A DNA stretch of 64,000 nt from Vicinamibacteria bacterium (lineage in GTDB: Bacteria > Acidobacteriota > Vicinamibacteria > Marinacidobacterales > Marinacidobacteraceae). The notes under the pieces are model-generated. The model was given only the letters and a program-made list of their open reading frames with translations. It had not been told where the DNA came from and did no database searches. Positions 17,650 to 35,254 of the stretch are shown piece by piece. A program made the position numbers and the translations under genes. The stretch lies in NCBI GenBank assembly GCA_963668695.2, contig CAXXLQ010000004.1, positions 3,712,001 through 3,776,000 on the forward strand, in the 5' to 3' direction. Each line of letters starts with the position of its first letter. Positions within the stretch are counted from its first letter, which is position 1.

Positions 17650-17919
17650 CAGCCTGTGGACAAAGTCAGACGGCCCAGTTCTCCCGGTGGGGGCTCGAGC
17701 GGCGATGCATCCCGGCTGAACCGCCCCCCCACCGGGAGAACTGGCGCTTCGCGTCGCTCATCGTTGCGCTTCGGGCGCTTCGGGCGCTTCGGGCGCTTCG
17801 GGCGCTTCGGTAGAAATACACCCGGTATTCCTCCCTCGCGCGCCTTGTCAGCCGGGCGCCTCACCGGCCAGTTCTCCCGGTGGGGGCCTCGGCGCTCCCG
17901 TCACTTTATCCACAGGTTG
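17650..17919. mobile_element. MITE copy 2 (divergent), with 3 micro-inserts and a 5x9-bp microsatellite
   Basis: IR CAGCCTGTGGACAAAGT / ACTTTATCCACAGGTTG; shared core AAATACACCCGGTATTCCTCCCTC..CCTTGTCAGCCGGGCGCCTC; (GCGCTTCGG)5 at 17766-17810. Confidence 0.8.
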
Positions 17920-18024
17920 TTCAGTGTGGTACAAGCGGTAGCCGTCCCTTCCGCCGGCCAAGAGCAGCTATCCGATCGTATCCTGCGGAGGGCGCAGCAC
18001 CTCACGCCGCACGGAGACCCGACC

Positions 18025-19965
18025 ATGACCCCGCCCCAGAAGACGTACCGCCCCTTTGGAGACGGCGTCAGCCGCCGCGATTTCCTTTCCGGGATTCCCG
18101 TGGCCCTGACCGGGACCGCCCTCGCCTGCCAAGAGGTTCCGGCGTTCCAGTCCGAAATCGAGCGCGAGGGCGCGGCGGCCTATCCGCCGCTTCGCACCGG
18201 GATGCGTGGATCCCACGCGGGCTCCTTCGAAGTCGGGCACCAGATGGCCCACGAGGGCCGGAGTTGGGAAGCCCCGGACACCGGCGAGGCGTACGACCTC
18301 GTGGTGGTGGGCGCCGGGATTTCAGGACTTTCCGCCGCCCATTACTTCTCGAAGGAGGCCGGCCCGGACGCCCGCATCCTGCTTCTCGACAACCACGACG
18401 ATTTCGGCGGGCATGCCAAACGCAACGAGTTCCACCTCGACGGGCGGACCTACCTGATGAACGGCGGAACCCTCAACGTGGAAGCGCCCTCGCAGTACGG
18501 GGATATCGCCGGCGGGCTGCTCAAGGAGATCGGGATCGACCGGAAGCGTTATTACGAGAGCATCAGCGCCGTCTCGGACACCTACGGGAATCTGGGTCTC
18601 CAGCGGGCCATGTTCTTCGACCGCGAGACTTTCGGGACGGACCAGTTGGTCGCGGGCATCGGGAGGCGTCCGCTCTCCGAGTTCCTCGCCGACTCGCCGA
18701 TGCCGGAGGCCGTCCGGAACGACCTGATCCGGCTTCACGCCGACGGGCAACCGGACTACCTGCCGGACCTCTCGCCCGCCGAGAAGAAGGCGTTCCTGGC
18801 CACCATCAGCTACAAGGACTTCCTGCTCGAATACGCGAAGTGCGACCCCGGAGTGGTCTGGTTCTTCGACCACCGGCCCAAGGGCCTCTTCTGCACCGGC
18901 ATCGATGCCTACCCGGCGCGCTACGCCTGGGAGGAGGGTTTGCCGGGGTTCTCGGGAATGGAAATTCCCGAGACGCCACCGGATGCTCTCGCCGACGAGC
19001 CGGGCGGCCAGCACGGACGCGAAAACCAGGCACGGGCCGATTCGGGCGATCCCGACCTCTACTTCCCGGACGGGAACGCGACGATCACCCGGCTCCTCGT
19101 GCGGGGGCTCATTCCGAACGCCGTCCCGGGGTCGACCATGGAAGACGTGGTGATGGCGCCACTGGACTACGGGATGCTGGACCAACCGGGTAACCGCGCC
19201 CGGATCCGGCTCTCCTCGACGGTCATTCGCGTCGAACCCGGCGAAGCCGGCCCGGCCCGGATCACCTACGTGCACGGCGACCAGGGGCACACGGTGACCG
19301 CCGGGCGGGTGATCCTCGCCTGCTGGCACAACATCATTCCCTACCTCGTTCCCGAGATGCCGAAGGCCCAGCGGGATGCGCTCTCCTGGCCGGTCAAGTC
19401 GCCGCTTCAGTACACGAGCGTGCTGCTCCACAACTGGCGGGCGTTCACCGAGGCGGGCGTCTCCTCGATTTCCGCGCCCGGGGGGTACCACACCTCGGTC
19501 GGACTCGCCCCCCAACTCGCGCTGGGCGACTACCGCACCTCGACCTCACCCGACGAGCCGCTGGTGGTGCGGATGAACCGCTACCCCTGCGAGCCCGGGC
19601 TCTCCCGCCGGGAGCAGCACCAGATCGGCAGGATGGAGCTGCTCCACACCACTTTCGAGACGGTGGAGGCGAACATCCGCGACCAGCTCAACCGGATGCT
19701 TGGCCGGAGCGGCTTCGACGATCAACGCGACGTCGCGGCGATCACCGTCAATCGCTGGCCGCACGGGTACACCTACTCCTACAACCCGCTCTTCGATCCC
19801 CCGGAGTGGGCGTTCGAGAACGGCGACGGCCGCCCCAACGTTTCCGCCCGGCAACCCTTCGGACGGATCGCAATCGCGGGCACCGACTCCGCCGCCAGCC
19901 CGCACACCGACGCCGCGATTCGCGAAGCCCATCGCGCGGTGGCGGAGATCCTCGCCGCGGACTGA
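18025..19965 (+). CDS. Tat-exported FAD-dependent oxidoreductase, spermidine dehydrogenase (SpdH)-like
   Basis: SRRDFL Tat motif; YPPLRTGMRGSH, VVGAGISGL, DNHDDFGGHAKRNEF, FPDGNA, ITVNRWPHGY. Confidence 0.85.
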   Translation: MTPPQKTYRPFGDGVSRRDFLSGIPVALTGTALACQEVPAFQSEIEREGAAAYPPLRTGMRGSHAGSFEVGHQMAHEGRSWEAPDTGEAYDLVVVGAGISGLSAAHYFSKEAGPDARILLLDNHDDFGGHAKRNEFHLDGRTYLMNGGTLNVEAPSQYGDIAGGLLKEIGIDRKRYYESISAVSDTYGNLGLQRAMFFDRETFGTDQLVAGIGRRPLSEFLADSPMPEAVRNDLIRLHADGQPDYLPDLSPAEKKAFLATISYKDFLLEYAKCDPGVVWFFDHRPKGLFCTGIDAYPARYAWEEGLPGFSGMEIPETPPDALADEPGGQHGRENQARADSGDPDLYFPDGNATITRLLVRGLIPNAVPGSTMEDVVMAPLDYGMLDQPGNRARIRLSSTVIRVEPGEAGPARITYVHGDQGHTVTAGRVILACWHNIIPYLVPEMPKAQRDALSWPVKSPLQYTSVLLHNWRAFTEAGVSSISAPGGYHTSVGLAPQLALGDYRTSTSPDEPLVVRMNRYPCEPGLSRREQHQIGRMELLHTTFETVEANIRDQLNRMLGRSGFDDQRDVAAITVNRWPHGYTYSYNPLFDPPEWAFENGDGRPNVSARQPFGRIAIAGTDSAASPHTDAAIREAHRAVAEILAAD

Positions 19966-20123
19966 GGACCGGCCAATCCAAGGGACCGGCTAGACCCGCT
20001 TCGAGAAACACGAGAAACGACAGACAGTCCCTTGGCATCGCGAGCTACCCAAGAGCGCTCCGGACAGCGATGATGCAGCAGCGGTACGAGAGCTATGCCC
20101 GTCGCGTTCTCTAACAGCTGGCA

Positions 20124-20498
20124 ATGACCCGAAGGAGCAGAGTGTCTCTAGATTTCTATGATCGGTCTGGCGCGGCAGTGGCCTATACGAATGATGGAGA
20201 GAACATCTACCTGTATTCAGGTGAACCCGTCGCCTATCTCTCGGATGGTTCCGTCTATTCCTTCGCGGGCCAACATCTCGGATGGTTTGAGGGCGGCTGG
20301 CTAAGGGATGCGGCTGGACACTGCGTTCTCTTCACAGCGGACGCTCGCGGTGGCCCTCTGAAACCCCTCCGTCAGTTGCGTCCACTAAAGGGATTGAGAC
20401 AACTCCGACCCACGAAGGGCGTACGGCAGATTAAACCTCTCAAGCCTTTGAAATCCCTGTCCTGGTCAGACTTGTCGGCTGAGGAGTTCTTTCGGTGA
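20124..20498 (+). CDS. Small '4-fold beta flower'-like protein with basic KPL repeats
   Basis: FYDRSGAAVAY, IYLYSGEPVAYL, VYSFAGQHLGWF repeats followed by (L)KPL(R/K)Q repeats; lower GC. Confidence 0.65.
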   Translation: MTRRSRVSLDFYDRSGAAVAYTNDGENIYLYSGEPVAYLSDGSVYSFAGQHLGWFEGGWLRDAAGHCVLFTADARGGPLKPLRQLRPLKGLRQLRPTKGVRQIKPLKPLKSLSWSDLSAEEFFR

Positions 20499-20510
20499 CG
20501 GCCGGTTGAC

Positions 20511-21200
20511 TTGGACTTGATTCCGCTCGCTCGGGTCCGCTTCGCGATTCTCGACGTCCTAGTCGAAACTGGCGTCGCCCCCTCTCCTAGCGAGGTGGCC
20601 GAAAGACTGGGGACCGCATTGGAGACGGTTCACGACGCGTGGAGCCAGTTGCGGGAGTCGCGGGCGATCGTCACCGGTGAGGACGGGGTCTCCATCCTGA
20701 TGGCAAACCCGTTCTCGGGGATTCCCACGGAGCACACCTTCGAAGCGGCGGGAATCCGCTACTACGCGAACTGCGCCTGGGACGCCCTCGGGATCCCCGC
20801 CGCGCTCGGGCGAGGCGGGACCGTCCGGTCGCGCTGTGCGAACTCCGGGGAACCCCTGCGGCTCGAACTCACCGGCGCCGGGCCGGAACCCTGCGACTGG
20901 CTCTTCCATTCGCTGGTGCCGGCGGCCCGCTGGTGGGACGACATCGTCTTCACCTGAGCGAACATGCTGTTCTTCCGGTCGGAAGACGACCTTCGCGCCT
21001 GGTGCGGCGAGCGCGGGCGCGAACCGGGGCCCGCGGTTCCGGTGTCCCGGCTCTGGAACCTCTCACGGATCTGGTACGGAAGCCGGCTTGATCCGAACGC
21101 CCCCCGGCCCACGCCCGAGGAGGCTCGCGCTATCTTCGCCCGAGTAGGCCTGACCGACCCTTTCTGGGATCCGGTTCCGCGCGAGGAGCAGACGCCATGA
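20511..21200 (+). CDS. MerB-like organomercurial/organometal lyase family protein with in-frame UGA (probable selenocysteine, codon 149)
   Basis: wHTH-like N-terminus, ANPFSG, YANCAWDAL, then WWDDIVFT-UGA-ANMLFFRSE continuing in frame to 21200. Confidence 0.8.
20969..20987 (+). promoter_or_regulatory. Candidate bacterial SECIS hairpin
   Basis: TCTTCC-GGTC-GGAAGA (20971-20986); G-initiated loop begins 19 nt after the UGA at 20955-20957. Confidence 0.6.
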
Positions 21201-22585
21201 TTGACGAGAAGTCCGATAGACAAAGCCAGGATTCACCCTCCGCACCCAAGATGCGCTTCGGACTGACCCGCCGACAGTTGCTGGCCGCCGGGGCCGGAGC
21301 GGCTGTCGTTCCGGCACTCGTCGCCGCCCAGGCCGCACCGGCCTCCCTGCTGGCGGCTCCCAAGATCCCGAACGTCCGTATCGGGTTCGTGGGAGTGGGC
21401 GGGATGGGAACCGTGCACGTCCAGAATCTGCTCGCGGTGGGCAAGGCGTCACCCGGAGTGGAGATCCGGGCGATCTGCGACATCCGTGCGGAACACGCCG
21501 AGCGGGCGCGCGACTTCATCCGCGAGGCGGGAGGGCCGGAACCCACTCTCTACACCCGGGGGGAACGGGACTTCGAACGGATGTGCGCCGAAGAGGACCT
21601 CGACCTCGTCTTCACCGCGACGCCCTGGCGCTTCCACGTCCCGGTGTGCCTCGCCGCCATGGAGAACGGCAAGCACGCCGCCACCGAGGTGCCGGCCGCG
21701 ACCACCATCGAGGAGTGCTGGGCGCTCGTTGAGGCCGCGGAACGCACCGGCCGGCACTGCGTGATGATGGAGAACTGCAACTACGGCCGCTGGGAAATGA
21801 TGGTCTTCCACATGGTCCGACTGGGGATCTTGGGCGAGATCCTCCATGCCGAAGGCGGCTACCTCCACGACCTCCGCGAGGTGAAGTTCGCGGACCGGGG
21901 GGAGGGGCTGTGGCGGCGCGCCCATTCGAGCACCCGGGACGCGAACCTCTACCCGACCCACGGCCTGGGTCCGGTGGCGAACTGCCTGGACATCGGCCGC
22001 GGCGACCGCTTCGACTACCTGGTCTCGATGAGCGGGCCGTCGCGGGGACTTCAGGACTACGCGCGGGAGCACTTCCCCGAGGGGGCGCCGCCGCGGGCGG
22101 AAGAGTTCGTGCTCGGGGACGTGAATCTGAGCCTGATCAAGACCGCCCGCGGCCGCACCATCACCGTGGTCCACGACACGAACCTGCCGCGCCCGTACAG
22201 CCGGATCAACCTGGTCCAGGGCACCCGGGGCATCTTCGCGGGCTACCCGAACCGGGTCTACGTCGAGGGAAGGAGCGAGTCGCACCGCTGGGACGACGCC
22301 GAGAAATGGCGCGAGGAGTACGAGCATCCGCTCTGGCGGAACGTCGCGGGCCCCGGTGAGGAGCTGGGGCACGGCCAGATGGACTACCTTGAGGACTACC
22401 GCCTCGTGCGATGCCTGCAGGAAGGGTTGCCGACCGAAATGAACGTCTACGACGCCGCCGCGCTCTCCGCCGTCATAGACCTCAGCGAACGCTCGGTGGC
22501 CGACCGCAGCCGGCCGATGGACTTCCCGGACTTCACACGGGGCGGCTGGAAAACGTTCCCGAAGCTGCCGGTCGTCACCGACTGA
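21197..22585 (+). CDS. Tat-exported Gfo/Idh/MocA oxidoreductase, GH109 (alpha-N-acetylgalactosaminidase-like)
   Basis: TRRQLL Tat motif; GVGGMG, ATPW, EVPAA, MMENCNY, YPTHGLGP, HDTNLPRPYSR, HGQMD. Confidence 0.9.
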   Translation: MIDEKSDRQSQDSPSAPKMRFGLTRRQLLAAGAGAAVVPALVAAQAAPASLLAAPKIPNVRIGFVGVGGMGTVHVQNLLAVGKASPGVEIRAICDIRAEHAERARDFIREAGGPEPTLYTRGERDFERMCAEEDLDLVFTATPWRFHVPVCLAAMENGKHAATEVPAATTIEECWALVEAAERTGRHCVMMENCNYGRWEMMVFHMVRLGILGEILHAEGGYLHDLREVKFADRGEGLWRRAHSSTRDANLYPTHGLGPVANCLDIGRGDRFDYLVSMSGPSRGLQDYAREHFPEGAPPRAEEFVLGDVNLSLIKTARGRTITVVHDTNLPRPYSRINLVQGTRGIFAGYPNRVYVEGRSESHRWDDAEKWREEYEHPLWRNVAGPGEELGHGQMDYLEDYRLVRCLQEGLPTEMNVYDAAALSAVIDLSERSVADRSRPMDFPDFTRGGWKTFPKLPVVTD

Positions 22586-22606
22586 AGCCGCTCGTCGCCG
22601 CGATTC

Positions 22607-22720
22607 GGCCCCCTCGGGCGCGCCAGCCAAATCCCCATCGGCCCGGTCATTCAATGCCGGGAAGCAAACCAAACGCAGTTTCCACAATCACCGGCCTACA
22701 CACGGAATTTCTGACAGTCC
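22607..22720 (+). mobile_element. Orphan right end of the IS256-family element
   Basis: ~115 bp closely matching 61408-61522 and ending in the IR ACACGGAATTTCTGACAGTCC. Confidence 0.85.
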
Positions 22721-22721
22721 T

Positions 22722-23530
22722 GCAGATCCCGGAATTGACGCATGCCCGGCTCGGCAGACCCCGGAATTGACCCATGCTCAGCCCGGCAGATCCCGGAATT
22801 GACGCATGCCCGGCCCGGCAGATCCCGGAATTGACGCATGCCCGGCTCGGCAGATCCCGGAATTGACCCATGCTCGGCTCGGCAGATCCCGGAATTGACC
22901 CATGCCCAGCTCGGCAAATCCCGGAATTGACGCATGCTCGGCCCGGCAGACCCCGGAATTGACCCATGCTCGGCCCGGCAGACCCCGGAATTGACGCATG
23001 CTCGGCTCGGCAGACCCCGGATTTGACGCATGCCCGGCTCGGCAGACCCCGGAATTGACGCATGCCCGGCCCGGCAAATCCCGGAATTGACGCATGCCCG
23101 GCCCGGCACACCCCGGAATTGACGCATGCCCGGCCCGGCACACCCCGGAATTGACCCATGCCCGGCCCGGCACACCCCGGAATTGACCCATGCTTGGCCC
23201 GGCAGACCCCGGAATTGACCCATGCTCGGCCCGGCACACCCCGGAATTGACCCATGCTCCGGCCAGCCGGCCCCGGAATTGACCCATGCTCGGCCCGGCA
23301 GACCCCGGAATTGACCCATGCTCGGCCCGGCACACCCCGGAATTGACCCATGCTCGGCCCGGCAGACCCCGGAATTGACGCATGCCCGGCCCGGCACACC
23401 CCGGAATTGACGCATGCCCGGCTCGCAGATCCCGGAATTGACGCATGCCCAGCTCGACAAATCCCGGAATTGACGCATGCCCGGCCCGGCAGACCCCGGA
23501 ATTGACGCATGCTCCGGCCAGCCGGCCCCG
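22722..23530. repeat. Minisatellite, 25 copies of a 32-bp unit
   Basis: Consensus GCAGA(T/C)CCCGGAATTGAC(G/C)CATGC(C/T)CGGC(C/T)CG; GGAATTGA core (one GGATTTGA) counted 25 times at 32-bp spacing, with one 31-bp unit. Confidence 0.95.
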
Positions 23531-23575
23531 AAAGGGAAACCAGCCGGGGCTGCCAGACTGGCCGGCGCCGGGCGC

Positions 23576-24985
23576 TCAGTCCTCCTGTCCCGGGCCGGGC
23601 CGGACGCGGGTTTCGGGGGGCGTCGGCTGGACCGTCCCGTTCCGGACCACCCAGTAGCCGTCCCGGAAGACTTCCGCGACGTTGGCGAGCGCGCCCAGGT
23701 CAGTGAGCGGATCCCCTTCCACGATCAGGATGTCAGCCAGTTTCCCGACCTCGAGGGTGCCTAGCTTGTCGTCCATTCCGAGCACCTTCGCGCTGTCCCG
23801 GGTGGCGGCGACAAGCGCCTCCGCCGGGGTGAACCCACTCTCCACGTACGCCTCCAGCTCCCAGATGTAGGCGTAGGGCAGATCCCGGAAGTTCTCCACG
23901 ATCAGGTCGGTTCCCACCCCGATCAGGACGCCGGCGTCCTTGAGCTCGCGCAGCATCGCCCGGCTGATCTCTCCGTCCAGCTCGAAGCGCCTCGACGTCG
24001 AGCTGTGGTAGCTGCCGCGCTCGTTGAAGATGTAGTCGTAGGTGATGATCGTGGGCACCGACGCCGTGCCGCGCCGCGCCATCATCTGGACCACCTCGTC
24101 GGTACGCGGCAGCGGGTGCTCGATGGTGTCGGCGCCCGCCTCGACGGCCCAGCCGGTGTAGAACGTCTCCGAGTCCACGGTGACCTTGAGGCCGAGCGCG
24201 TGGGCCTCGTCCACCGCGGCGGCGATCTCTTCCTGGCTGAAGTGGCTCGCGATCTTGATGAGGTCGGCGCCCTTCTTGAACTGTTGGCGGACGGCGTCGC
24301 GGAATTCGTCGGGCCCGGAGGCTTCGACGATCCCGCCGTAGAGCGCATGGTGGATCGAATACCCCTCGGCGCCGTGACCGCCGGTCCCGGTGATGAGCGA
24401 TCCCGCGGCGAAGACCCGCGGCCCGGGCAGGCGGTTCGCGTTCACCCAGTCCTTGACGATGAAGGGCACGGTCCCCGCCGAGCCCGTGTCCCGAATCGAG
24501 GTGATCCCCGAGCCGATGAAGACGTGCAGCCGCTCCATCGCCCGGAGCGTCTGGTGGGCCGGATCAATCGCAAGCGGCTGCGGTATTCCCGGCTCGGTGT
24601 AGGTGAGATGCGTGTGGAGATCGATCAGCCCCGGCAGGACGGTGTGGCCGGAAACGTCGAGCACCATGGCGTCCTCCGGCCAGCCGGTTTCCCCTTCCGC
24701 CAGGACGGCCGCGATCCGGTTGCGCTCGATGACGAGCGTGCCCACTCGGGAATCGGCGCCCGTGCCGTCGAAGACAAAGCCGCCGGAGAGGACGGTCGTC
24801 CCTTCGGGGCCGCGCGCACCGGGCGGCGCGGGAACCCGGCGCGGGTCGTCCGAGGTCTGGATGTCGTTCAGGAATTGGCGCCGGTCCACGACCTGGCGCT
24901 GGGGCTCGGGGGGTTGGGCGAAGGCAAGTGGGGCCACGAGGGAGAAGAGGAACGCAGTGGCGACGATCACGCGAGCAGGGGACAT
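23576..24985 (-). CDS. Secreted metal-dependent amidohydrolase
   Basis: Signal peptide; LPGLIDLHTH, GITSIRD, TGTGGHG, IEH, GTD, GTLEVGKLAD. Confidence 0.9.
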   Translation of the reverse strand: MSPARVIVATAFLFSLVAPLAFAQPPEPQRQVVDRRQFLNDIQTSDDPRRVPAPPGARGPEGTTVLSGGFVFDGTGADSRVGTLVIERNRIAAVLAEGETGWPEDAMVLDVSGHTVLPGLIDLHTHLTYTEPGIPQPLAIDPAHQTLRAMERLHVFIGSGITSIRDTGSAGTVPFIVKDWVNANRLPGPRVFAAGSLITGTGGHGAEGYSIHHALYGGIVEASGPDEFRDAVRQQFKKGADLIKIASHFSQEEIAAAVDEAHALGLKVTVDSETFYTGWAVEAGADTIEHPLPRTDEVVQMMARRGTASVPTIITYDYIFNERGSYHSSTSRRFELDGEISRAMLRELKDAGVLIGVGTDLIVENFRDLPYAYIWELEAYVESGFTPAEALVAATRDSAKVLGMDDKLGTLEVGKLADILIVEGDPLTDLGALANVAEVFRDGYWVVRNGTVQPTPPETRVRPGPGQED

Positions 24986-25144
24986 GGGGAACTCCTTGGC
25001 GGCCGACCGGCCGGCCGGACTATTCTCGCCGGTAGGAGCGGTCGCGGCCGCGCGGCGCCCGAGTCAGGACGGCCCGCGGCTGGGAAGTCGGGCATTCGTG
25101 CTTCTGATTGACGGGAGGCGCCGGCGCCGGAACAATGCTGCTTC

Positions 25145-26167
25145 GTGTTCGGCAAACCCTGGTCCCTCGGCGTGAGGCGCGCGAAGGTGCGGACGACCGG
25201 CGGCAGGCTTCGAGTGCCGGTTCGCTTCTGGGTTTCGTCCGTCAGCCGCTTCCTCGCTCTTCTTGTGGGGGTAGTGGTCGCGGGCTGCGCCTACGGGCCG
25301 TCGGGCTCCGGGCCGGCCCAGGCCGAACCGGCAAAGGCGAAGGTGCTACTGATCGGAATTGATGGGGTGCGGCCCGACGTGATGGCCGAGGTGCCGACTC
25401 CAAATCTCGACGCTCTCGCCGGAGGGGGCCGGTTCATCACCGACGCGCAGACGACGACCCCCTCGGTGAGCGGGCCGGCCTGGTCGTCCATGCTGACCGG
25501 CGTCTGGCCCGACAAGCACGGCGTCACGGACAACGAGTTCACCGGGAAGCGATATGACGAGTTTCCCGATTTCCTGACGCGTATCGAGCAGGTGCGCCCC
25601 GAACTGGCGACGGTGGCCATCGCGGATTGGATGCCGCTGGTCCGGGCCGAAGAGGGGAGCGCCACCATCAGCGACGCCGTTGACGTGAAGCACGCGCTCG
25701 ACGGCTACCAGCTCGGATGGGCCGAGGCGGACGGCCGAGCGGCAGCGCTCGCGGTCGAGCTGCTCACCCAGTCCGACCCGGATGCGCTCTTCGTTTACCT
25801 CGGCCACGCCGACGAGGCGAGTCATGAGCACGACTCGATCGGTGAGGAATACCGCGCGGCGATCGCGCTTGCCGACCGGCATGTGGGGGAGATCGTCGCG
25901 GCGGTGCGAGCCCGCGCGTCATTCGCAAGCGAGGATTGGCTGATCCTGTGCAGCACCGACCACGGCCGCCGAGCCGACGGCGGGCATGGCGGAGACAGCC
26001 CGGAGGAAATGACGATCTTCGTGATCGCGAGCGGCGCCGGGTCGGCGACCGCCCCCATCCCGAATGGTGTCGGGATCGTGGACGTAGCGGTGACGGCGCT
26101 CACCCATCTCGGACTCGCCATCGAACCCGAGTGGGAGCTGGACGGAAAGTCGCTGCTGGATCCTTGA
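25145..26167 (+). CDS. Alkaline phosphatase superfamily / nucleotide pyrophosphatase lipoprotein (start uncertain)
   Basis: Lipobox VAGC; IGIDGVR, SVSGPAWSSMLTG, DEASH, STDHG, HGG. Confidence 0.87.
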   Translation: MFGKPWSLGVRRAKVRTTGGRLRVPVRFWVSSVSRFLALLVGVVVAGCAYGPSGSGPAQAEPAKAKVLLIGIDGVRPDVMAEVPTPNLDALAGGGRFITDAQTTTPSVSGPAWSSMLTGVWPDKHGVTDNEFTGKRYDEFPDFLTRIEQVRPELATVAIADWMPLVRAEEGSATISDAVDVKHALDGYQLGWAEADGRAAALAVELLTQSDPDALFVYLGHADEASHEHDSIGEEYRAAIALADRHVGEIVAAVRARASFASEDWLILCSTDHGRRADGGHGGDSPEEMTIFVIASGAGSATAPIPNGVGIVDVAVTALTHLGLAIEPEWELDGKSLLDP

Positions 26168-26215
26168 CCGAGGGGGCGCAGCGCCATCGGGGCTGGTTTC
26201 GCGCTGCGCGCGGCG

Positions 26216-26317
26216 GTGCCGGGCTCCACTGGGAGAACTGCCCGGAGGTCGGCGTTCCCGTGCCTCCGCGCCACCCGTGCCGGCCGGAGGCCGGCCCAGT
26301 TCTCCCGGTGGGCGTTC
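26216..26317. repeat. Pair of REP-like palindromes, each interrupted by the micro-insert
   Basis: GTGCCGG[..]CCGGAGGTCGGCGTTCCC and GTGCCGGCCGGAGGCCGGC[..]GTTCC between convergent genes. Confidence 0.6.
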
Positions 26318-26367
26318 CGCTGTCGCCCGCGTTTCACGTGGGTCGGCGGTCCCCCGCCGCCGGCACG

Positions 26368-27420: not shown

Positions 27421-27479
27421 GGTGGGCGGGGATGGTAATCGCCCACCGATTCGCGGTGCCCCGTCATAGACTCACGCGA

Positions 27480-28205
27480 ATGGCCATGGCCACGGCCCCG
27501 AAGCTGACCGTCTGGGAAAACCTCCGCCGCTATCTGCTTCGCGGTTTCCTCGTCTGGATCCCGCTGGCGGCGGTGTTTCTGGTGGGCCGGCTGATCTACT
27601 CGATCATCCAGTCCTGGTTCTTTCCCTCCCTCCCCTGGGAGCCTCGGCTCACCGCGCTGGGCGTGGTGATCGTGGTGCTCGTGTTGACCGGTTGGGGAGT
27701 CTCGAGGTTCGGGGTCGCCCGGCTCGTCCTGCGGGCAGTGGTGGAACGCCCGCTCAGCCGGATTCCGGTAGCGCGCTGGATCTATTCGGGCGTGCGCGAG
27801 TTGCTGGAGGCGCTCTTCACCTCAGGCGACGCGTTCGGGAAGGTCGTCCTCATCGAGTATCCGCGGCGCGGCGTCTACAGCATCGCGTTCCAGATGGCGA
27901 GTGAACTCGGTGAAGTGCAGCACCGGGTCCGCCAGCGGATCGCAGAGCGGACCGGTACAGGTGCCTCGACCGAACCCGGCGAAACCGATGCCGGCCCGCG
28001 TGAAGTCATGGCGGTCTTCGTCCCCACCACCCCGAATCCGACCTCGGGTTTCGTGATCACGCTCCCCAAGGAAGACGTGATCGAGCTTTCCATGAGCCGG
28101 CAGCAGGCCCTCCAGATGGTCATCTCGCTCGGAGTGGTCGTGCCCGAGTGGCAAAAGGACCAGTTGGACGGGGAGCCCCCCCCGCCTCCGGAACCGACCT
28201 CCTAA
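27480..28205 (+). CDS. DUF502 domain membrane protein
   Basis: IPVARWIY, VVLIEYPRRG, VFVPTTPNPTSGF, VISLG. Confidence 0.9.
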   Translation: MAMATAPKLTVWENLRRYLLRGFLVWIPLAAVFLVGRLIYSIIQSWFFPSLPWEPRLTALGVVIVVLVLTGWGVSRFGVARLVLRAVVERPLSRIPVARWIYSGVRELLEALFTSGDAFGKVVLIEYPRRGVYSIAFQMASELGEVQHRVRQRIAERTGTGASTEPGETDAGPREVMAVFVPTTPNPTSGFVITLPKEDVIELSMSRQQALQMVISLGVVVPEWQKDQLDGEPPPPPEPTS

Positions 28206-28403
28206 CAGCCTGTGGTGAAACCCACGTGAGCGCCGAGCCTGGCCAGTTCTCCCGGTGGGGGCGAGGCGCCCGGCTGACAAGGCGCGTGAGGGAGGAATAC
28301 CGAGTGTATTGCGACCGAAACGCAACGCAGAACGGAGCGAAGCGGAGTGGTTCAGCGGGGATGCATCGCCGGGCGAACGCCGCGTGGGTTTTGCCACAGG
28401 CTG
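28206..28403. mobile_element. MITE copy 3, directly after the DUF502 TAA, with 1 micro-insert
   Basis: CAGCCTGTGGTGAAACCCACG...CGTGGGTTTTGCCACAGGCTG; flanks CTAA/TCAA. Confidence 0.85.
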
Positions 28404-28481
28404 TCAAGGCTCCGCCTGAGCGCGGGCGGCTCGGAAGCCTTTCTGGGAAGCCTTTCTTCGAAGCCTTTCTTGGCGCGCCGC

Positions 28482-29840
28482 TCAGACGACGCCCTGGTCC
28501 ATCATGGCGTCGGCGACCTTGAAGAACCCGGCGATGTTGGCGCCGACCACGTAGTTCCCGACCGCGTCGAATCGCTCCGACGCCTTGATGCAGGCGTCGT
28601 GGATCTCGAACATGATGTCGCTCAGCCGGTGGTCCACCACCTCGCGCTTCCACTGGATCATCCCGATGTTCTGGGCCATCTCGAGGCCCGACACGGCGAC
28701 GCCGCCGGCGTTCGCGGCCTTCCCGGGCCCGTAGAGGATCTTGGCGGCGACGAACTGGTCCACCGCGTCCGGCACCGACGGCATGTTGGCGCCCTCCGAG
28801 ACCAGGAAGCAGCCGTTCGCGAGCAGATTCGCGGCGTCCTTGCTGCTGACCTCGTTCTCCGTGGCGCACGGGAAGGCGCAGTCGGCGGGAATGGCCCAGA
28901 GCGGGTTGTGATCCGCCCCCGGATCGGACTCGTAGTAACTCACGCCCGGGAATTTCGCGGCGTATTCCCGAATCCGGCCGCGCCGGACGTTTTTGAGTTC
29001 CATCACCCAGGCCAGTTTTTCGGCGTCGATGCCGTCCGGGTCGTGGACGAAGCCGCTCGAGTCCGAAAGGGTCACCGCCTTCGCCTCGAGGTCGTTCAGT
29101 TTTTCCACCGTGTACTGGGCGACGTTCCCGCTGCCGGAGACAAGACAGGTCTTCCCGTGGAGGCCGTCGTTGCGGGTGGCGAGCATCTCCTGGGCGAAAT
29201 ACACCGCCCCGTAGCCGGTGGCCTCCGGCCGGATCAGCGATCCGCCCCAGCCCGGTCCCTTGCCGGTGAGCGTCCCGGTGAACTCGTTGGCAAGCCGCTT
29301 GTACTGGCCGAAGAGGAAGCCGATCTCGCGTCCGCCGACCCCGATGTCCCCCGCCGGAACGTCCGTGTAGGGGCCGATGTGGCGCTGCAACTCCGTCATG
29401 AAAGACTGGCAAAAGCGCATGACCTCCAGGTCGCTCTTGCCTTTCGGATCGAAATCCGAGCCGCCCTTGCCGCCGCCCAGCGGCAGCGTGGTAAGGGAGT
29501 TCTTGAACATCTGCTCGAAAGCGAGGAACTTGAGAATCGAGGCGTTGACCGAAGGATGAAAACGGAGCCCTCCCTTGTAGGGCCCGATCGCGCTGCTCAT
29601 CTCGATCCGGAAACCGCGGTTCACCTGGACATCTCCGGCGTCGTCCACCCAGGGGACCCGGAACGTCACCACCCGCTCGGGCTCCACCATCCGGTCGAGG
29701 ACGCGGGCGGCGCGGTACTCGGGATGGCGTTCGATGACGACGGCGACGGATTCGACGACTTCGCGGACCGCCTGGTTGAACTCGGGCTCGGCCGGGTTCC
29801 GCGCCGCTACCTGATTCAGTACGGATTCAATGTAGTTCAT
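28482..29840 (-). CDS. gdhA: NADP-specific glutamate dehydrogenase
   Basis: GPYKGGLRFHPSVN, GGGKGGSDFDP, DVPAGDIGVG, RPEATGYG, SGSGNVA, GKAANAGGV. Confidence 0.97.
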   Translation of the reverse strand: MNYIESVLNQVAARNPAEPEFNQAVREVVESVAVVIERHPEYRAARVLDRMVEPERVVTFRVPWVDDAGDVQVNRGFRIEMSSAIGPYKGGLRFHPSVNASILKFLAFEQMFKNSLTTLPLGGGKGGSDFDPKGKSDLEVMRFCQSFMTELQRHIGPYTDVPAGDIGVGGREIGFLFGQYKRLANEFTGTLTGKGPGWGGSLIRPEATGYGAVYFAQEMLATRNDGLHGKTCLVSGSGNVAQYTVEKLNDLEAKAVTLSDSSGFVHDPDGIDAEKLAWVMELKNVRRGRIREYAAKFPGVSYYESDPGADHNPLWAIPADCAFPCATENEVSSKDAANLLANGCFLVSEGANMPSVPDAVDQFVAAKILYGPGKAANAGGVAVSGLEMAQNIGMIQWKREVVDHRLSDIMFEIHDACIKASERFDAVGNYVVGANIAGFFKVADAMMDQGVV

Positions 29841-29967
29841 GGACCCTCCGGCCAATTTGGGCGCGGATTGTAGGGTGCGGAAGGCTCTCCGGTACCGCGA
29901 TCTTCGCGAATGGCCGCCCTCGCGCTCCGGCGAGAAGGCCGCCGGAGAGTGACACACTAGGAATTCA

Positions 29968-32937
29968 ATGCCGCTCCATGGCGCCCTCTCGCCGGCGTTC
30001 GCCGATCTGGTCGGGTTCCAGATTCGCGAAGTTCTCTTCGTGCTGAGTCACTACGACTCGTTCATCCTCGCCGAGGACGGCCAGCTCGACGACCGGGTTC
30101 TTTCCGGGTTCCTCGATCTGAACCTGAGGACCCTGCCGAGCGTGACGCAGGTCGAGTCGGGGACCGAGGCCCTCGATCGCCTCGCCCGGGCGCCGGACCG
30201 TTTCCAACTGGTGATCGGCTCGCCGGATCTCGGTGACATGGACATCGGGACGTTCGCGCATCGGCTCCGCCACGCCGGCCGGGAGACGCCGGTCACGCTC
30301 TTCGGGTACGACACCCGCACGGTGCGCGAGTACCTGGCGCGCCACCATGGCCGCGACCTCGAAAAACCCTTCGTCTGGCAAGGGGACGTCGGGATCTTCC
30401 TGGCGATCGTGAAACAGATCGAGGACCGCCGGAACGCACCCCAGGACACGGGCAAACTCGGAGTTCCCGCCATCCTGCTGATCGAGGACAGCATCCGCTA
30501 CTACTCCTCGTTCCTTCCGGTGGTGTACCAGGCGGTCTTCGAGCAGACCCGGAAACTCATCCCGGAAGGGCTCAGCCTCACGGAGAAATTCGACCGGATT
30601 CGCCGCCGGCCGAAGATCCTGCTCTGCGACGATTACGAGGAGGCGTGGGATTCCTTCACGGCCTTCCCGGACCAGATCCTCGGGGTGATCTCGGACGTCG
30701 AATTCCCGCGCGAGGGCCGGCCGGACCCGCAGGCCGGAGAACGGTTCGTCGCCGCCATGCGGCGGATGCGCCCGGACATCCCGGCGATCCTGCACTCCCG
30801 GCGTCCGGAAAATGAAGCGCTCGCCCGGGAGGTAGGCGCCGACTTTCTGCTGAAGGGCTCGCGGGACCTCCTTCGCCGGATCCGGGGCCTGATGCGCGAC
30901 CGGTTCCATTTCGGCGACTTCGTGTTCCGGGGGTCCGACGGGACGGAAGTCGCGCGCGCCGCCGATCTGGATTCGTTCGAACGGGTGATCGGCTCCGTGC
31001 CGCACGAGGTACTGGTGCAGCACGCCCGAAACAACGAAATCTCCCACTGGCTGATGGCGCGGGGGGAACTGGAGCTGGCCCGCCGGCTCCGCGAAGTGCG
31101 CATCAGCGACTACGGCCCGGGCGACCACATGGGACGCGATGTGGCCCGACGGCTTCAAAAGCGCAGGCAGGAGCGGACCCGCGCGGTAGTGGCCGACTTC
31201 CCTCGCGAGGGTTTCGATCCGGGCGCCCCCTTCCTCCGCATCGGGAGCGGCTCCGTGGGCGGCAAGGCTCGCGGCCTCGCGTTCACCAACTCGGTACTCG
31301 CCCGGTCCGGAATCCAGGAACGCCATCCGGACACGATCATCGCCGTGCCCCAGGCGGTCGTGCTGGCGACCGGGATCTTCGACAGCTTCATGGAGGAGAA
31401 CGACCTCCTTTCCTTCGCGCTCGAGGTCACGAGCGAGGCCGAACTACGGGAGCGCTTCGACCAGGCGCACTTCCCCGAGGAGGCTTGGCGGGATCTCCGC
31501 CGATTCCAGGAGCAGGTGCGCTACCCGCTTGCGGTCCGGTCGTCGAGCCTGCTCGAAGACTCGCCCTACCAGCCTTTCTCGGGGGTGTACGAGACCGTCC
31601 TGGTGGCGAACCAGGAGGAAACGGCGCGAGGACGTCTGGACGCCCTGGCGAGGGCCATCAAGCAGGTGTATGCCTCGCTGTTCCTGCCGCGGGTCCGCAG
31701 CTTCCTCGACACCACTCCCTACCGCCAGGAAGAAGAAAAGATGGCGGTCATTCTCCAGCGGGTCGTGGGCCTGCCCCACGGGCGGCGCTTTTACCCGGAC
31801 ATCGCCGGAACCGCCAGATCACAGAACTTCTATCCCACCCCACCGCTCGGCGCCGGGGACGGCATTGCGACGGTCGGACTCGGACTCGGCGAGCAGATCA
31901 CGAGCGGCGGACCGGCGGTCCGTTTTTCGCCGCGCCATCCCCACCACCGCCTGGGCCACCGGAGCGCCGAAGATGCCTGGCGCAATTCGCAGAGCGAGTT
32001 CCTCGCGGTGGATCTCGACGCCGAGCCTTCAGCCGGAGTCGCGGGAGCGCCGCCGCTCCGGGCGGGCTCGCTCGCCGATGCGGAGGCCGACGGCGTGCTG
32101 GGGTTGCTCGCCTCAACCTGGTCCAAGGACTCGGGCACTCTGCACGACGGCATCTCACGACCGGGGAGCCGGCTGCTGACACTCGCTCCACTGCTCAGGA
32201 TGCCCGACGTGTTCCCGCTCGCCGAAATCCTCACCGAGCTCCTCGAGCTGGCGGAAGAGGCCTGCCGCGCTCCGGTGGAGCTGGAGTTTGCGGCCAACCT
32301 TTCGGTTCCGCGGGGAAGCCCCCGCGAATTCGGATTCGTCCAGTTGCGGCGCCTCCAGCGGACCCGCGAGCCACCGCCGGCGGAGGCGACCGCCGTCGCG
32401 AGCGGGGAGGGTGTCCTCTGCCGGAGTTCCCAGGTGCTTGGTCACGGGCAGATCGAAGGCATCCATGACCTCGTCGTCGTCCATCGGGATACCTTCGACC
32501 GGCTGAAGAGCCGGGAGGTGGCCCGCGATGTCGCCCGGCTCAACAGCCGCCTCCAGCGCGAGAATCGTCCCTATGCGCTCATCGGCGTGGGGCGCTGGGG
32601 ATCACGGGACCGCTTCCTCGGGATTCCGGTTACCTGGGAGCAGGTGAGCGGCGCCCGGGTCATCGTGGAAGCCGGGTTCCGGGATCTCATCGTCACGCCT
32701 TCGCAGGGGACCCACTTCTTCGACAACCTGGTCTCGAACGGGATCGGCTACTTCACCGTGAACCCCGAGCGCGGTGACGGCGTCCTCGATTGGGACTGGC
32801 TGGGTAGCCAGCCCGCGCTCTGGGAGAGCGGCCCCGTCCGCCACTTGCGTCTCCGCTCGCCCCTCCGGGTGCGCATGCAGGGAGGCCAGAGCGACGGCTG
32901 GATCCTGAAGGAATCTCCCGACGGACCGGGTGACTGA
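29968..32937 (+). CDS. PEP/pyruvate-binding (PEP synthase N-terminal-like) protein with degenerate receiver domains
   Basis: YDSFILAEDG, GSVGGKARGLAF, LAVRSSSLLED, SQGTHFF; divergent from gdhA. Confidence 0.85.
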   Translation: MPLHGALSPAFADLVGFQIREVLFVLSHYDSFILAEDGQLDDRVLSGFLDLNLRTLPSVTQVESGTEALDRLARAPDRFQLVIGSPDLGDMDIGTFAHRLRHAGRETPVTLFGYDTRTVREYLARHHGRDLEKPFVWQGDVGIFLAIVKQIEDRRNAPQDTGKLGVPAILLIEDSIRYYSSFLPVVYQAVFEQTRKLIPEGLSLTEKFDRIRRRPKILLCDDYEEAWDSFTAFPDQILGVISDVEFPREGRPDPQAGERFVAAMRRMRPDIPAILHSRRPENEALAREVGADFLLKGSRDLLRRIRGLMRDRFHFGDFVFRGSDGTEVARAADLDSFERVIGSVPHEVLVQHARNNEISHWLMARGELELARRLREVRISDYGPGDHMGRDVARRLQKRRQERTRAVVADFPREGFDPGAPFLRIGSGSVGGKARGLAFTNSVLARSGIQERHPDTIIAVPQAVVLATGIFDSFMEENDLLSFALEVTSEAELRERFDQAHFPEEAWRDLRRFQEQVRYPLAVRSSSLLEDSPYQPFSGVYETVLVANQEETARGRLDALARAIKQVYASLFLPRVRSFLDTTPYRQEEEKMAVILQRVVGLPHGRRFYPDIAGTARSQNFYPTPPLGAGDGIATVGLGLGEQITSGGPAVRFSPRHPHHRLGHRSAEDAWRNSQSEFLAVDLDAEPSAGVAGAPPLRAGSLADAEADGVLGLLASTWSKDSGTLHDGISRPGSRLLTLAPLLRMPDVFPLAEILTELLELAEEACRAPVELEFAANLSVPRGSPREFGFVQLRRLQRTREPPPAEATAVASGEGVLCRSSQVLGHGQIEGIHDLVVVHRDTFDRLKSREVARDVARLNSRLQRENRPYALIGVGRWGSRDRFLGIPVTWEQVSGARVIVEAGFRDLIVTPSQGTHFFDNLVSNGIGYFTVNPERGDGVLDWDWLGSQPALWESGPVRHLRLRSPLRVRMQGGQSDGWILKESPDGPGD

Positions 32938-32964
32938 CGGGGGCGACTGAGCGCCGTCCGTCGG

Positions 32965-33129
32965 GGGAAGATCAGCCTCTACGGGAGGAGCAGTCCCTTC
33001 GGGGAAGATCAGCCCCTACGGGAAAATCAGCCCCTACGGGAAAATCAGCCCCTACGGGAAAATCAGCCCCTACGGGAAAATCAGCCCCTACAGCCCCTAC
33101 GGGAAGACGAGCCCCTACGGGAAGATCAA
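32965..33129. repeat. 18-bp tandem repeat derived from the transporter's last codons and stop
   Basis: GGGAAAATCAGCCCCTAC x4 exact (33020-33091) plus degenerate flanking copies. Confidence 0.88.
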
Positions 33130-34737
33130 ATAGATCGCCGCGATCGCCGCCAGCGCGAGGCCGCCCTTCCAGAAGACTCCCGGCAGCGGCGTCAGATCGA
33201 CCCCGGTGACCGGGGCCGGCGGTTCGTAGACGACCGTGCGGGGCCAGCGCCACGCGGCGAGCGCGAGTCCCGCCACCAGAATCAGGAAACTGATCCCCAT
33301 GTGGTGGAGGAAGGCGGTCTCGGGCCAGCCGAGCCGCAGGGCGGCATAGATCGGAATCCCTCCCAGCAGCCCGGCCCGCGCGGCGAACGCCGGGATCCGG
33401 GTCGACACCACTCCGGCGAAGAAGACCGCGACGATCCCGGGGGTGACGAAGCCCCAGACCGTCTGGATGTACCGGAACACGCCGGGGAATCCACCGATCA
33501 GGGGCGCCCAGAGGCAGGCGGCGATCACGAAGACGGTGGAGGCGACGCGAGCGATCCGAACCGAGGAAACGCCCCCGTCTGCCTCCGGACTCCGGCTCCG
33601 GCGGAAGAGACGGTGGTGCACGTCGAGCGCGTACATCGTGGAAGCCGAGTTCAGCATCGAATTGAAGGAACTCATGATCGCCCCCGCGAGCGCGGCGAGC
33701 AGCACCCCACGGAGCGCCGGCGGGACAAGTTCCCGAACCAGCACCGGATACGCCTGATCGGGATGGACGATCTGGTCGCCGTAGAGCTGCATCGCGAGGA
33801 TGCCGGGGAAGCAGATCAGGAACGGCACCAGGATCTTGAGCCAGGCCGCGAAGATGATCCCCCGCTGGCCCTCGGCGAGGCTGCTGGCGGCGAGCGTGCG
33901 CTGGATGATGAACTGGTTCACCCCCCAGTAGAAGAACTGCGCGATCCAGAGCCCGCCGATGAATACTGCGGTCCAGGGAACCTCCGGATGGTCGGCGGGC
34001 AGGATCGTGTGCAGCCGGTCCTCGTTCTCCGCAAGAAATCGCGCGGCGCCGGCCAATACACCGTCGTCCCCGCCGAGCTCCGAGAAGCCGAGCCAGAGCA
34101 CCATCGCCCCGCCGGCGAGGATCGCGATCCCCTGGATGAAGTCGGACCAAACGACCGCCCTCAGTCCGCCGTAGATCGTGTAGACGCTGGCCAGCAGACC
34201 GATACCCCACACCCCCAGCAAGGTGGCCGCTAACTCCGCGGCAGCGGGGGAAAGCCCCAACAGGTTCCCGAGGATTTCGGGCAGCAGGAAGATGGCGTTC
34301 AGCGCCACCGCCCCGGCGTAGAGCACCGTCGCCATTGCGACGAACACGGTGGCGGCCGTGAGGAGGGCGGCGAGGATGGTCCGGCTCCCCCGGTCGTATC
34401 GCCGCTCCAGGAACTCCGGCATGGTGAACACGCCGCTCTTCAGGTAGCGGGGCAGCAGAAACCACCCGATGACGATGAGGGCCGCCGCCGCCGTCCACTC
34501 GTAGCTGGCGATCGCAAGGCCGATGTCGGTGGCCGCCGACCCGGACATCCCGACGAAGTGCTCGGTCGAGATGTTGGTCGCAACGAGCGACATCCCGATG
34601 GCCCAACCACCGAGGTTCCGGCCGGCGAGGAAGTACCCCTCCGCCGTTCGCCGTCCGCGCGACGCCCGCAGAGAAACGAAGACCACGGCCCCGAGGAAGA
34701 GGACGAAGGTCAGCAGATCGGTGGTGGAGAGCGGCAT
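33115..34737 (-). CDS. Sodium:solute symporter (SSS family, sugar-type)
   Basis: YFLAGR, ATNISTEHFVGMSG, TMPEFLERRY, YTIYGGLRAVVWSD, YWGVNQFIIQRTLAA. Confidence 0.95.
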   Translation of the reverse strand: MPLSTTDLLTFVLFLGAVVFVSLRASRGRRTAEGYFLAGRNLGGWAIGMSLVATNISTEHFVGMSGSAATDIGLAIASYEWTAAAALIVIGWFLLPRYLKSGVFTMPEFLERRYDRGSRTILAALLTAATVFVAMATVLYAGAVALNAIFLLPEILGNLLGLSPAAAELAATLLGVWGIGLLASVYTIYGGLRAVVWSDFIQGIAILAGGAMVLWLGFSELGGDDGVLAGAARFLAENEDRLHTILPADHPEVPWTAVFIGGLWIAQFFYWGVNQFIIQRTLAASSLAEGQRGIIFAAWLKILVPFLICFPGILAMQLYGDQIVHPDQAYPVLVRELVPPALRGVLLAALAGAIMSSFNSMLNSASTMYALDVHHRLFRRSRSPEADGGVSSVRIARVASTVFVIAACLWAPLIGGFPGVFRYIQTVWGFVTPGIVAVFFAGVVSTRIPAFAARAGLLGGIPIYAALRLGWPETAFLHHMGISFLILVAGLALAAWRWPRTVVYEPPAPVTGVDLTPLPGVFWKGGLALAAIAAIYLIFP

Positions 34738-34809
34738 GCGGCCCGGGGATTGTGAGGCAACTCAGGGTCGAGCGACCCGCTGCCGGGGCTTCTCCCCCTG
34801 TTGGTCACG

Positions 34810-35120
34810 TCAAGAGCAGAAGCAAGGGCAAGCCCCGCCAGCGGATCGCCCGGCGCTTCGCGCCGGGCTTTCGAAGTGCGGCGAGAGCCGTACGGAGACC
34901 CCGGAGCGGGAGGGGTTGGAGTCGGGGGACCCGACTCCCAGCCGCTCCTGGCTCGGGAATCGCAACTCCCTTGCGCGCCTTCGGCGCACGGCGGCGAGTT
35001 CCGATTCGTCATTGCCGATTGTGAAAGGGGGTGACGCCTGGGGTGACCCCCTTTCACACTTTCCCCCGAAATCGCCGGCAGCGAACCAAGTTCGCTGCCA
35101 TTGGTTTTGTCGCACGCTCG
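34810..35120. other. Hairpin-rich non-coding element (possible IS-end remnant or structured RNA)
   Basis: Stems at 34848-34868, ~34902-34948, 35020-35058 and 35077-35099; ends TTTTGTCGCACGCTC. Confidence 0.4.
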
Positions 35121-35254
35121 ACAGTACGCCGGTCTTTCAGAGAGTGCGCCCCGAGATAGGAGCACCGGGCAGTTCTCCCGGTGGCCTACAGACCGGCATC
35201 GCTCCCCGCAGGGGAGCGAAACGCAACGCGCCCGCTCGCGCGAACCGTGGGCAG

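Follow-up and report, generated by a model that had tools for sequence, protein, structure and literature searches.

A 20-nucleotide cassette secondarily gained at hairpin and palindrome tips in genomes of the Marinacidobacteraceae

The DNA analyzed here is a stretch of 64,000 nt (C4:3712001-3776000, hereafter the window) from a Vicinamibacteria bacterium of the family Marinacidobacteraceae, whose assembly GCA_963668695.2 (here G000) comprises 4.10 Mb in 4 contigs at 67% GC. Several hairpin-forming repeats of the window contain a short extra unit that we refer to as the cassette. It is non-coding and ~20 nt long (CCAGTTCTCCCGGTGG, usually with GGG next and C last), and it is a secondary addition to its hosts, the same kind of thing as the small dispersed repeats (SDRs) of cyanobacteria, the "very small mobile repeats". 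As such, it ranks among the smallest mobile DNA units known. The cassette sits in fixed slots with fixed orientations and slot-specific junction alleles, has flipped between presence and absence very recently, and has entered the centers of palindromes. A sequence-only reading of the window had described it as a micro-insert of repeat hairpins, and had proposed that it might be either the excision footprint of an element that targets hairpins or a templated tag written by a nuclease, a reverse transcriptase (RT) or a HUH system.

The main host in G000 is one miniature inverted-repeat transposable element (MITE) with the ends AGCCTGTGG...CCACAGGCT, which holds ~79% of the cassettes (1,341 of the 1,690 classified). 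In the 223 MITEs that could be anchored, cassettes fall into four regions, S1 to S4, and their orientation is fixed per region with a single exception. The remaining 349 copies are found in hairpin families resembling repetitive extragenic palindromes (REPs), in extra MITE slots and at a few unique sites.

Direction and tempo of cassette gain

One case lies in a gene for an RND/AcrB-type transporter. An exact in-frame cassette is present in this gene in G000 and in its closest relative G001, two genomes that share ~94% identity over 244 kb, while the gene of 12 other genomes of the genus lacks exactly those 18 nt. The encoded protein reads ...HGGEPGPHRENWRDAA..., versus ...HGGEPARDAA... in G008, and the target is the center of the 10-bp palindrome CCCGCGCGGG. 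The RND-gene cassette is a gain in unique coding DNA.

The sequence-only reading had noticed no cassette in coding DNA. This stands for the seven copies of the window, judged by reading and without a gene caller, and fails genome-wide on account of the RND gene and of a second case. At locus L060 (G000:C4:1820421-1820522), a 102-nt element of the REP-B hairpin type carries a cassette and lies in frame in a conserved open reading frame (ORF) with a YELLQNAEDA ATPase-like motif; the 102-nt element is absent from G001, G008 and G004. Coding status was assigned from GC content at third codon positions (GC3) together with the absence of stops on the flanks, as the longest stop-to-stop frame is uninformative where 67% GC generates spurious long frames.

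A second line of evidence comes from a hairpin of G001, in which the cassette replaces 3 nt beside the loop. The G000 counterpart (locus L121, C4 ~3626040) is a perfect palindrome (15-bp stem, GCA loop; GGTGGTGCGAATCGC / GCGATTCGCACCACC) located inside a larger structured intergenic element. Since the empty state is a perfect palindrome, deletion of a cassette could not have recreated it.

Slots of the MITE provide a third line. One orthologous S1b slot is empty in G001, singly filled in contig C1 of G000 and doubly filled in contig C4. Behind one and the same gene in G000, G001 and G008 stands a MITE (G000:C4:3654600-3655013) whose slots S2 and S4 are filled in G000 only. Between species, the two arms of this MITE have diverged in parallel and well beyond the genes on either side, so that replacement of the whole MITE is possible at this shared site; the arm divergence suggests replacement or conversion of entire MITE copies at a fixed TA site.

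The tempo of these changes can be read from duplicated parts of the G000 assembly. About 259 kb are present twice at 97.6-99.7% identity (C4:13-148 kb versus 3.783-3.914 Mb; C1 versus C4:304-421 kb; C3 versus C4:3.505-3.538 Mb), which accounts for the 9.3% "contamination" figure of the assembly. These duplicates are probably strain haplotypes or unresolved overlaps. Five clean slot flips occur in their 258,608 aligned columns, next to 1,679 substitutions (0.65% divergence, 99.35% identity). At the flip at C4:90726, the two versions agree over 200 nt to either side and differ only by an 18-nt indel and one neighboring base. Three haplotype flips come without an outgroup state, the MITE being absent or different at those places in G001, G004 and G008; an outgroup state is likewise lacking at locus L120, and in G004 and G008 for the hairpin locus.

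Between genomes, slots were compared on 400-kb samples of G001 and G008. We found cassettes shared with G000, cassettes private to one genome with the host present in both, and cassettes in MITEs absent from the other genome. Against the G001 sample, 20 cassettes were present, 16 diverged, 3 found in G000 only, 5 found in G001 only and 72 in absent hosts; one of the 5 G001-only cases is a partial internal duplication and not a flip.

The opposite direction, in which the cassette is ancestral to the repeats and the "empty" copies are deletions, had been named by the sequence-only reading as a competing view. GGC on either side of many copies could support slippage deletion, and some flips may be losses, the direction being set for a few loci only. 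As a general explanation, however, deletion is contradicted by the RND gene of the 12 outgroup genomes, by outgroups that are empty at S2 and S4 and at S1b, and by the palindrome of the empty hairpin. Moreover, empty states contain 1-3 specific bases that are absent from the filled ones, and the same cassette occurs in unrelated host families. We therefore consider an ancestral cassette highly improbable. The RND gene, the three-state S1b slot and the G001 hairpin bear out the earlier description of a discrete unit, too short for a transposon, that was secondarily added at hairpin or palindrome tips.

Abundance, spread and host repeats

Within the window, the 15-mer core CAGTTCTCCCGGTGG has 7 matches at up to 2 mismatches (6 exact, 1 with a single mismatch), at the places where it was first noticed: 17676+, 17729-, 17869+, 26226- (1 mismatch), 26297+, 28244+ and 35170+. 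The expectation is 0.20, and 7 matches were reached in 0 of 100 shuffles. The genome-wide count proposed by the sequence-only reading gave 1,338 exact copies in 4.1 Mb and 1,691 with up to 2 mismatches. Conservation extends beyond these 15 nt: a C stands before the core in 97% of 1,337 exact copies inspected, 1,313 of 1,690 copies (78%) have three extra G after it, and in 1,513 of 1,690 the G-run ends in a C. The usual unit is thus the 20-mer CCAGTTCTCCCGGTGGGGGC, with a G-run that varies from 0 to 5 extra G. The three nucleotides before CAG are GGC in 839, GCC in 632 and CGC in 110 of the 1,690 copies, in line with the earlier remark that the motif usually follows GG or GGC.

Copies on the main contig are balanced between strands (646 plus, 635 minus) with no regional skew. 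They group into 628 clusters with quantized spacings, which are 18, 25, 71 and 98 nt for direct pairs, 50, 53 and 57 nt for convergent pairs, and 63, 110 and 116 nt for divergent pairs. These features, together with copy numbers of 0-1,288 within the family, led us to reject a DNA uptake sequence or a polar motif such as Chi or KOPS. The cassette has no internal inverted repeat and pairs only with a second inverted cassette or with a host CCGG. Read as six codons, the 18-mer contains zero stop codons in all six frames. A search of window positions 15000-37000 with Rfam covariance models returned mir-760 as its sole hit, at an E-value of 0.89 and far under its gathering score. At C4:2637616, a single cassette has an internal 11-nt duplication that produces the string CCAGTTCTCCC twice.

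The exact 18-mer was found in 21 of 41 related genomes; these 21 belong to 5 genera and hold 1 to 1,288 copies each. It is present in G000, in all 15 other genomes searched in the genus, and in 5 of 9 genomes of the six other genera of the family (4 of the 6 genera); in the two sister families it was found in 0 of 16 genomes. A reversed control pattern gave 0 hits. G000, G001, G004 and G008 contain 525-1,288 copies each, the other congeners 5-85. Genes across the 5 cassette-bearing genera are only 73-79% identical. In G018, a member of another genus, the cassette followed by GGGC is unchanged and sits in the same MITE, there with more slots, as well as in other host repeats, among them a 44-nt tandem unit. 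At six G018 loci (L076, L077, L083, L085, L088 and L093), partial 13-nt units CCAGTTCTCCCGG stand in tandem ahead of a full cassette, up to three in a row, a stacking that suggests slippage between CCGG words.

This spread also bears on whether the motif is a sequencing adapter, a primer or an assembly artefact, a concern that the sequence-only reading had raised, along with a possible absence from other samples. The 21 assemblies are independent and the reversed control is silent, and the cassette lies in frame in a gene of two species. The window locus was found in 20 public runs from 8 studies, and contigs of four runs were compared with it. Those of X2 and X9, each from a different study, start in unique flank, extend into the first cassette and confirm the junctions, while a contig of X8, from a third study, joins 17638 to 17923 with the MITE absent. 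The contigs break inside repeats, and mixed slot occupancy within a population is therefore not readable from them; RNA contigs of X15 over the MITE could not be assigned to the locus and have no bearing on expression. Given these observations, an artefactual origin can be dismissed for practical purposes.

Among 362 oriented MITE copies, 86 have zero cassettes and 276 have one to seven, and MITE lengths proceed in steps of 177 (the cassette-free form), 196, 213, 232, 249 and 267 nt. These quantized lengths, and a cassette-free paralogous junction found for 265 of the 1,691 copies, extend to the whole genome the earlier observation that each copy is extra relative to an empty sister repeat. 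All 16 filled and empty combinations of the four slots are present among the 223 anchored MITEs. Occupancies are positively associated, with odds ratios of 3.5-4.0 for S1-S2, S1-S4 and S2-S4 (p 3e-6 to 4e-5).

Alignment of filled with empty repeats, a step that the sequence-only reading had advised, shows a net difference of 18 or 19 nt, in which 1-3 target nucleotides are often replaced instead of a simple insertion being made. In cassette orientation, S2 exchanges TAT for G + 18-mer + GC, as seen at 6 orthologous loci; in S4, the 20-mer stands in place of GT, and in S1a the cassette displaces one variable base. The singly filled S1b reads GTCC, and its empty and double states read GCCC, in 3 of 3 recent events and by 71 to 6 genome-wide. 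Quasipalindrome correction, in which this S1b allele would be copied from the other arm of its own MITE, was considered and rejected, as neither the S4 nor the S2 junction supplies the T of the single allele. The 349 copies outside the main slots usually have C[C/T]GG plus C on their upstream side, and cassettes of the REP-B hairpin, which may lie on either strand, are inserted where the 5' stem meets the loop. Single-linkage clustering of flanks merged the majority of MITE slots in a single cluster of 1,367 and gives no reliable count of independent insertion contexts.

The cassette itself is not a MITE by the usual features (terminal inverted repeats, a target-site duplication, a length of 50-500 nt), being a 20-nt unit that lacks inverted ends. 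S2, S4, the RND gene and the G001 hairpin show replacement of target bases and no duplication, and GGC on both sides fits a 3-nt repeat only in S1a and REP-B. It agrees instead with SDR-type very small repeats, which are under ~30 nt in many near-identical dispersed copies, and like them it can be there or missing where the surrounding DNA is conserved, both inside other repeats and between orthologous regions of relatives.

In 77 S4, 81 S2 and 49 S1a copies, the columns of the cassette do not vary, whereas those of the adjoining host sequence have minor-allele fractions of 0.3-0.45 and the flank variants beside slots are common to filled and empty copies. Cassettes must hence be younger than their hosts, or homogenized relative to them. 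Invariance amid varying flanks could also mean that the cassette is kept for a function, either as a binding site of a nucleoid or regulatory protein or as a structural module that lengthens the MITE hairpin, with the patchwork shaped by selection and recombination, as in the extra motifs of the bacterial interspersed mosaic elements (BIMEs) of E. coli. Cassettes in opposite arms do pair and extend the predicted rod, slot occupancies are associated, and the stop-free frames make the cassette tolerable inside genes. The association is nevertheless as strong for the non-pairing S2-S4 (4.0) as for the pairing S1-S4 (3.5), and not significant for S2-S3. A range of 0 to 1,288 copies among close relatives is unlike a conserved cellular function, strand or positional bias along the chromosome is absent, and so is an Rfam match in the part of the window searched. 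A functional role thus appears improbable.

The copies of the window and their hosts are given in Table 1. MITE 1 contains cassettes at three positions and in both orientations, as had been pointed out from the sequence. At its site, G008 has the MITE with all three slots empty, and G001, G004 and nine other congeners have no MITE; the G001 site has a short, unusual junction that an excision may have left behind. MITE 1 also harbors a 9-nt tandem repeat, GCGCTTCGG (17760-17812), in about five copies, against one unit in the G008 ortholog. The REP-like element at 4916 was correctly recognized as an empty sister, having the build of 35150-35230 minus the insert.

Table 1. Cassettes and host repeats in the window (positions counted from the first nucleotide of the window)
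Feature	Position	Strand	Remarks
Cassette copy 1, MITE 1, CCAGTTCTCCCGGTGGGGGC	17675..17694	+	Orthologous MITE of G008 lacks exactly 18 nt; X2 and X9 contigs reach 17692 from unique flank
Cassette copy 2, MITE 1, inverted, long G-run	17723..17744	-	Long inverted pair with copy 1; 18-nt gap in G008 ortholog
Cassette copy 3, MITE 1, after CACCGG, on the opposite strand of the S1 region	17868..17887	+	19-nt gap in G008 ortholog; X2 and X9 contigs begin at 17868
Host MITE-A copy 1, ends AACAGCCTGTGG ... CCACAGG	17648..17921	-	3 cassettes and expanded 9-nt tandem repeat; empty length of the family 177 nt
Cassette with 1 mismatch, CAGTTCTCCCAGTGG	26224..26242	-	REP-like hairpin, family 'ggaacgccgacctcYgg[cassette]'; family also filled elsewhere in the genome
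Cassette with short G-run	26296..26313	+	Second REP-like repeat, family 'ggccggaggccggc[cassette]'; empty paralogue e.g. C4:455496
Cassette in slot S1a of MITE 2	28243..28262	+	15-68 empty paralogous junctions for the slot
Host MITE-A copy 2, one cassette	28204..28402	+	196-nt length class
Short 16-nt cassette, G-run absent	35169..35184	+	5' stem-loop junction of REP-B hairpin; REP-B family filled and empty elsewhere
Empty REP-B element	4905..4975	+	Unfilled comparison for REP-B

Proposed templated copying at hairpin tips and its main rival

Several origins of the cassette were set aside. Depending on the 10-mer, pieces of either motif half occur outside the whole motif 7-67 times, scattered as by chance, versus ~1,400-1,680 occurrences in total. 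As the halves almost never occur apart from the whole, no long element in G000 ends in them. The motif is not palindromic either, and the excision-footprint idea finds no support.

The HUH and RT forms of a templated tag fare no better. The Pfam model Y1_Tnp (PF01797) has 0 matches in the cassette-rich genomes G000, G004 and G018. Y1_Tnp genes (of IS200 type, or of the REP-associated tyrosine transposase, RAYT, type) are present in 14 of 26 genomes of the family, in no relation to cassette copy number, and many cassette-poor relatives have a match. RVT_1 (PF00078) has 0 matches in G000, G004, G008 and G018 and is matched in 3 of the 26 genomes, divergent RTs lying outside the model. A REP/RAYT system was rejected on the same Y1_Tnp result and because the unit is not palindromic. 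A blunt GG^CC fragment of the HaeIII kind would fit the 18-nt tandem form; it fits neither the 78% of copies with three extra G nor the RND-gene target.

Two layers are left to be explained, namely flips within repeat families and the arrival of cassettes at new sites. For the flips, slot-specific junction letters in otherwise identical backgrounds make conversion between paralogues the simplest reading, in which very short patches would be copied from paralogues with the other allele. The new sites comprise the RND gene, the hairpin of G001 and a dozen or more different slots and host families. They call for a process by which the same 18-20 nt arrive at the tips of hairpins or palindromes and 1-3 bases are lost.

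We hypothesize that templated short-patch copying at hairpin tips acts together with conversion between paralogous copies, an account that we prefer tentatively and rate somewhat below an even chance. The cassette would encode nothing and would be copied, not cut out. The tip of a GC-rich hairpin or short palindrome may be nicked or may stall replication, whereupon 1-3 nucleotides would be lost from it. Repair synthesis might then be templated by one of the many existing cassettes, guided by 2-4 nt of GG or GGC micro-homology, for a net gain of 18 or 19 nt. Once resident in a slot, a cassette could be passed to, or removed from, sister repeats by very short-patch conversion between paralogues. 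Transposition of the MITE would multiply resident cassettes passively, and slippage would give rise to the tandem 18-nt and 13-nt arrays. Of these steps, we infer the break or stall at the tip and the templating from other copies.

The replacement of 1-3 nt, the net 18 or 19 nt and the variable G-run fit repair synthesis better than a cut-and-paste unit. A tip break or stall followed by templated repair could account for the replaced bases, the variable G-run and both tandem forms with no dedicated gene, which we regard as plausible if not quite probable. Of the proposed tag written into palindromes, this host-repair form survives as the reading favored here, with the confidence of a near toss-up leaning to doubt.

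Several observations weigh against copying by repair. The exact 18-mer is kept across 5 genera, and the same cassette edges recur in many unrelated hosts. A letter-perfect 18-mer with constant edges is expected of recognition by a specific protein, and a passive process would need concerted evolution to maintain it. Orientation is fixed in every slot, with 1 exception in 223 MITEs. A donor copy with convincing flank homology was not found for the RND-gene insertion, and no intermediate of break, stall or repair was observed. The enzyme families searched were Pfam Y1_Tnp and RVT_1 only. Orthologous sites that differ between species may furthermore reflect replacement of whole MITEs rather than flips of single slots.

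Alternatively, a dedicated trans-acting enzyme of this bacterial family, such as a sequence-specific nuclease, a recombinase or an integrase-like protein, could recognize the cassette and write it into hairpin tips that bear CGG or CCGG. This main rival appears possible but rather unlikely to us, and the same doubt attaches to its corollary that the cassette is a non-autonomous mobile element, a MITE reduced to a single binding site. In its favor are the exact 18-mer in 21 of 41 relatives and in 5 genera (1 to 1,288 copies), the identical edges in host repeats that are unrelated to each other, in G000 as well as in another genus, the fixed orientation and the same outcome at a given slot, and the C[C/T]GG that targets have in common just upstream. 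Lineage-specific bursts, with 525-1,288 copies in G000, G001, G004 and G008 versus 5-85 in other congeners, also agree with such an enzyme. However, the high-copy genomes are rich in host MITEs as well, by first-look candidate counts, so that the bursts may only mirror amplification of the MITE. No candidate gene was found in the search for Y1_Tnp and RVT_1, which had 0 matches in the most cassette-rich genomes. One enzyme drawing on one source would hardly produce slot-specific letters such as the T of the singly filled S1b, which paralogous templates would readily supply, and both the G-run length and the number of replaced bases vary.

A broader possibility spans both accounts. A family-specific activity may write a fixed 20-nt word into hairpin and palindrome tips, replacing 1-3 bases, with no transposase, HUH enzyme or RT, be it as a new sequence-specific DNA-writing enzyme or as a self-reinforcing repair bias in which the commonest template wins. 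We put this forward with considerable doubt. If true, the word enters repeats, and genes in frame, within <1% haplotype divergence.

Relation to known small repeats

Mobile DNA is normally thought to require at least two enzyme-binding ends. To our knowledge, units of ~20 nt that precisely appear and disappear have been described essentially once, in the cyanobacterial SDRs, and we know of no mechanism for them. Replication and repair machinery alone can make precise templated changes of a few to tens of nucleotides, as in quasipalindrome template switching in E. coli. Such switching copies the opposite arm of the same palindrome, whereas the cassette places one word at unrelated sites, and any template for it must therefore be a distant copy.

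Other host-borne modules are larger. Rickettsia palindromic elements of 100-150 nt lie in frame in protein genes and resemble the cassette as selfish repeats tolerated in coding DNA, where the additions seen here measure 18 nt in the RND gene and 102 nt in the ATPase-like ORF; they are palindromic, in contrast to the 18-20 nt cassette. In pneumococcal BOX elements (boxA-boxBn-boxC) and in ERIC variants, copies of the host repeat vary in the number of a short internal module, much as the MITE varies in its count of cassettes at fixed positions. BOX and ERIC modules are 45-70 nt long and confined to one host, whereas the 20-nt cassette also enters unrelated repeats and unique DNA.

The BIME/REP mosaics of E. 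coli, and the REPINs with their RAYTs (PMC3116915), resemble the hosts of the cassette in being intergenic hairpins with short modules in fixed order and orientation, at high copy number and in clusters. The cassette differs from REPs and REPINs in lacking a palindromic structure and in being added to REP-like hairpins, and a Y1 gene of RAYT type was not found in G000.

The closest described parallel is the small dispersed repeats of heterocystous cyanobacteria. Elhai et al. 2008 reportedly distinguished SDR1-8, notably SDR4-6, in Nostoc punctiforme and its relatives. SDRs are ~20-27 nt long, near-identical and of high copy number, are present or absent at conserved sites, often nested in other repeats, and encode no protein. 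The cassette shares with them the tiny near-identical unit, the precise insertion at a short defined target and the non-coding character. SDR5 inserts precisely between nucleotides 3 and 4 of HIP1 (PMC4390886), the SDRs are characterized as ~20 bp, tandemly repeated and possibly mobile (PMC2884548), and they are mentioned once more in PMC3116915. The two differ in phylum and are presumably unrelated in sequence, and the cassette targets CGG- or CCGG-bearing hairpin tips where SDR5 targets HIP1. The cassette is further set apart by the replacement of 1-3 target bases, slot-specific junction alleles, a far higher copy number of ~1,700 and in-frame insertion in a conserved gene.

Cassettes make intergenic repeats longer or shorter and can extend a protein by six residues, with a practical bearing on strain typing, assembly and annotation of these sponge-associated bacteria. 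With such material, the writing of short pieces into DNA becomes testable through comparative genomics and long-read population data. Compared with the SDRs, this genome family offers a much richer case, with ~1,700 copies, 5 genera, dated gains, flips at 99.35% identity and targets at hairpin tips.

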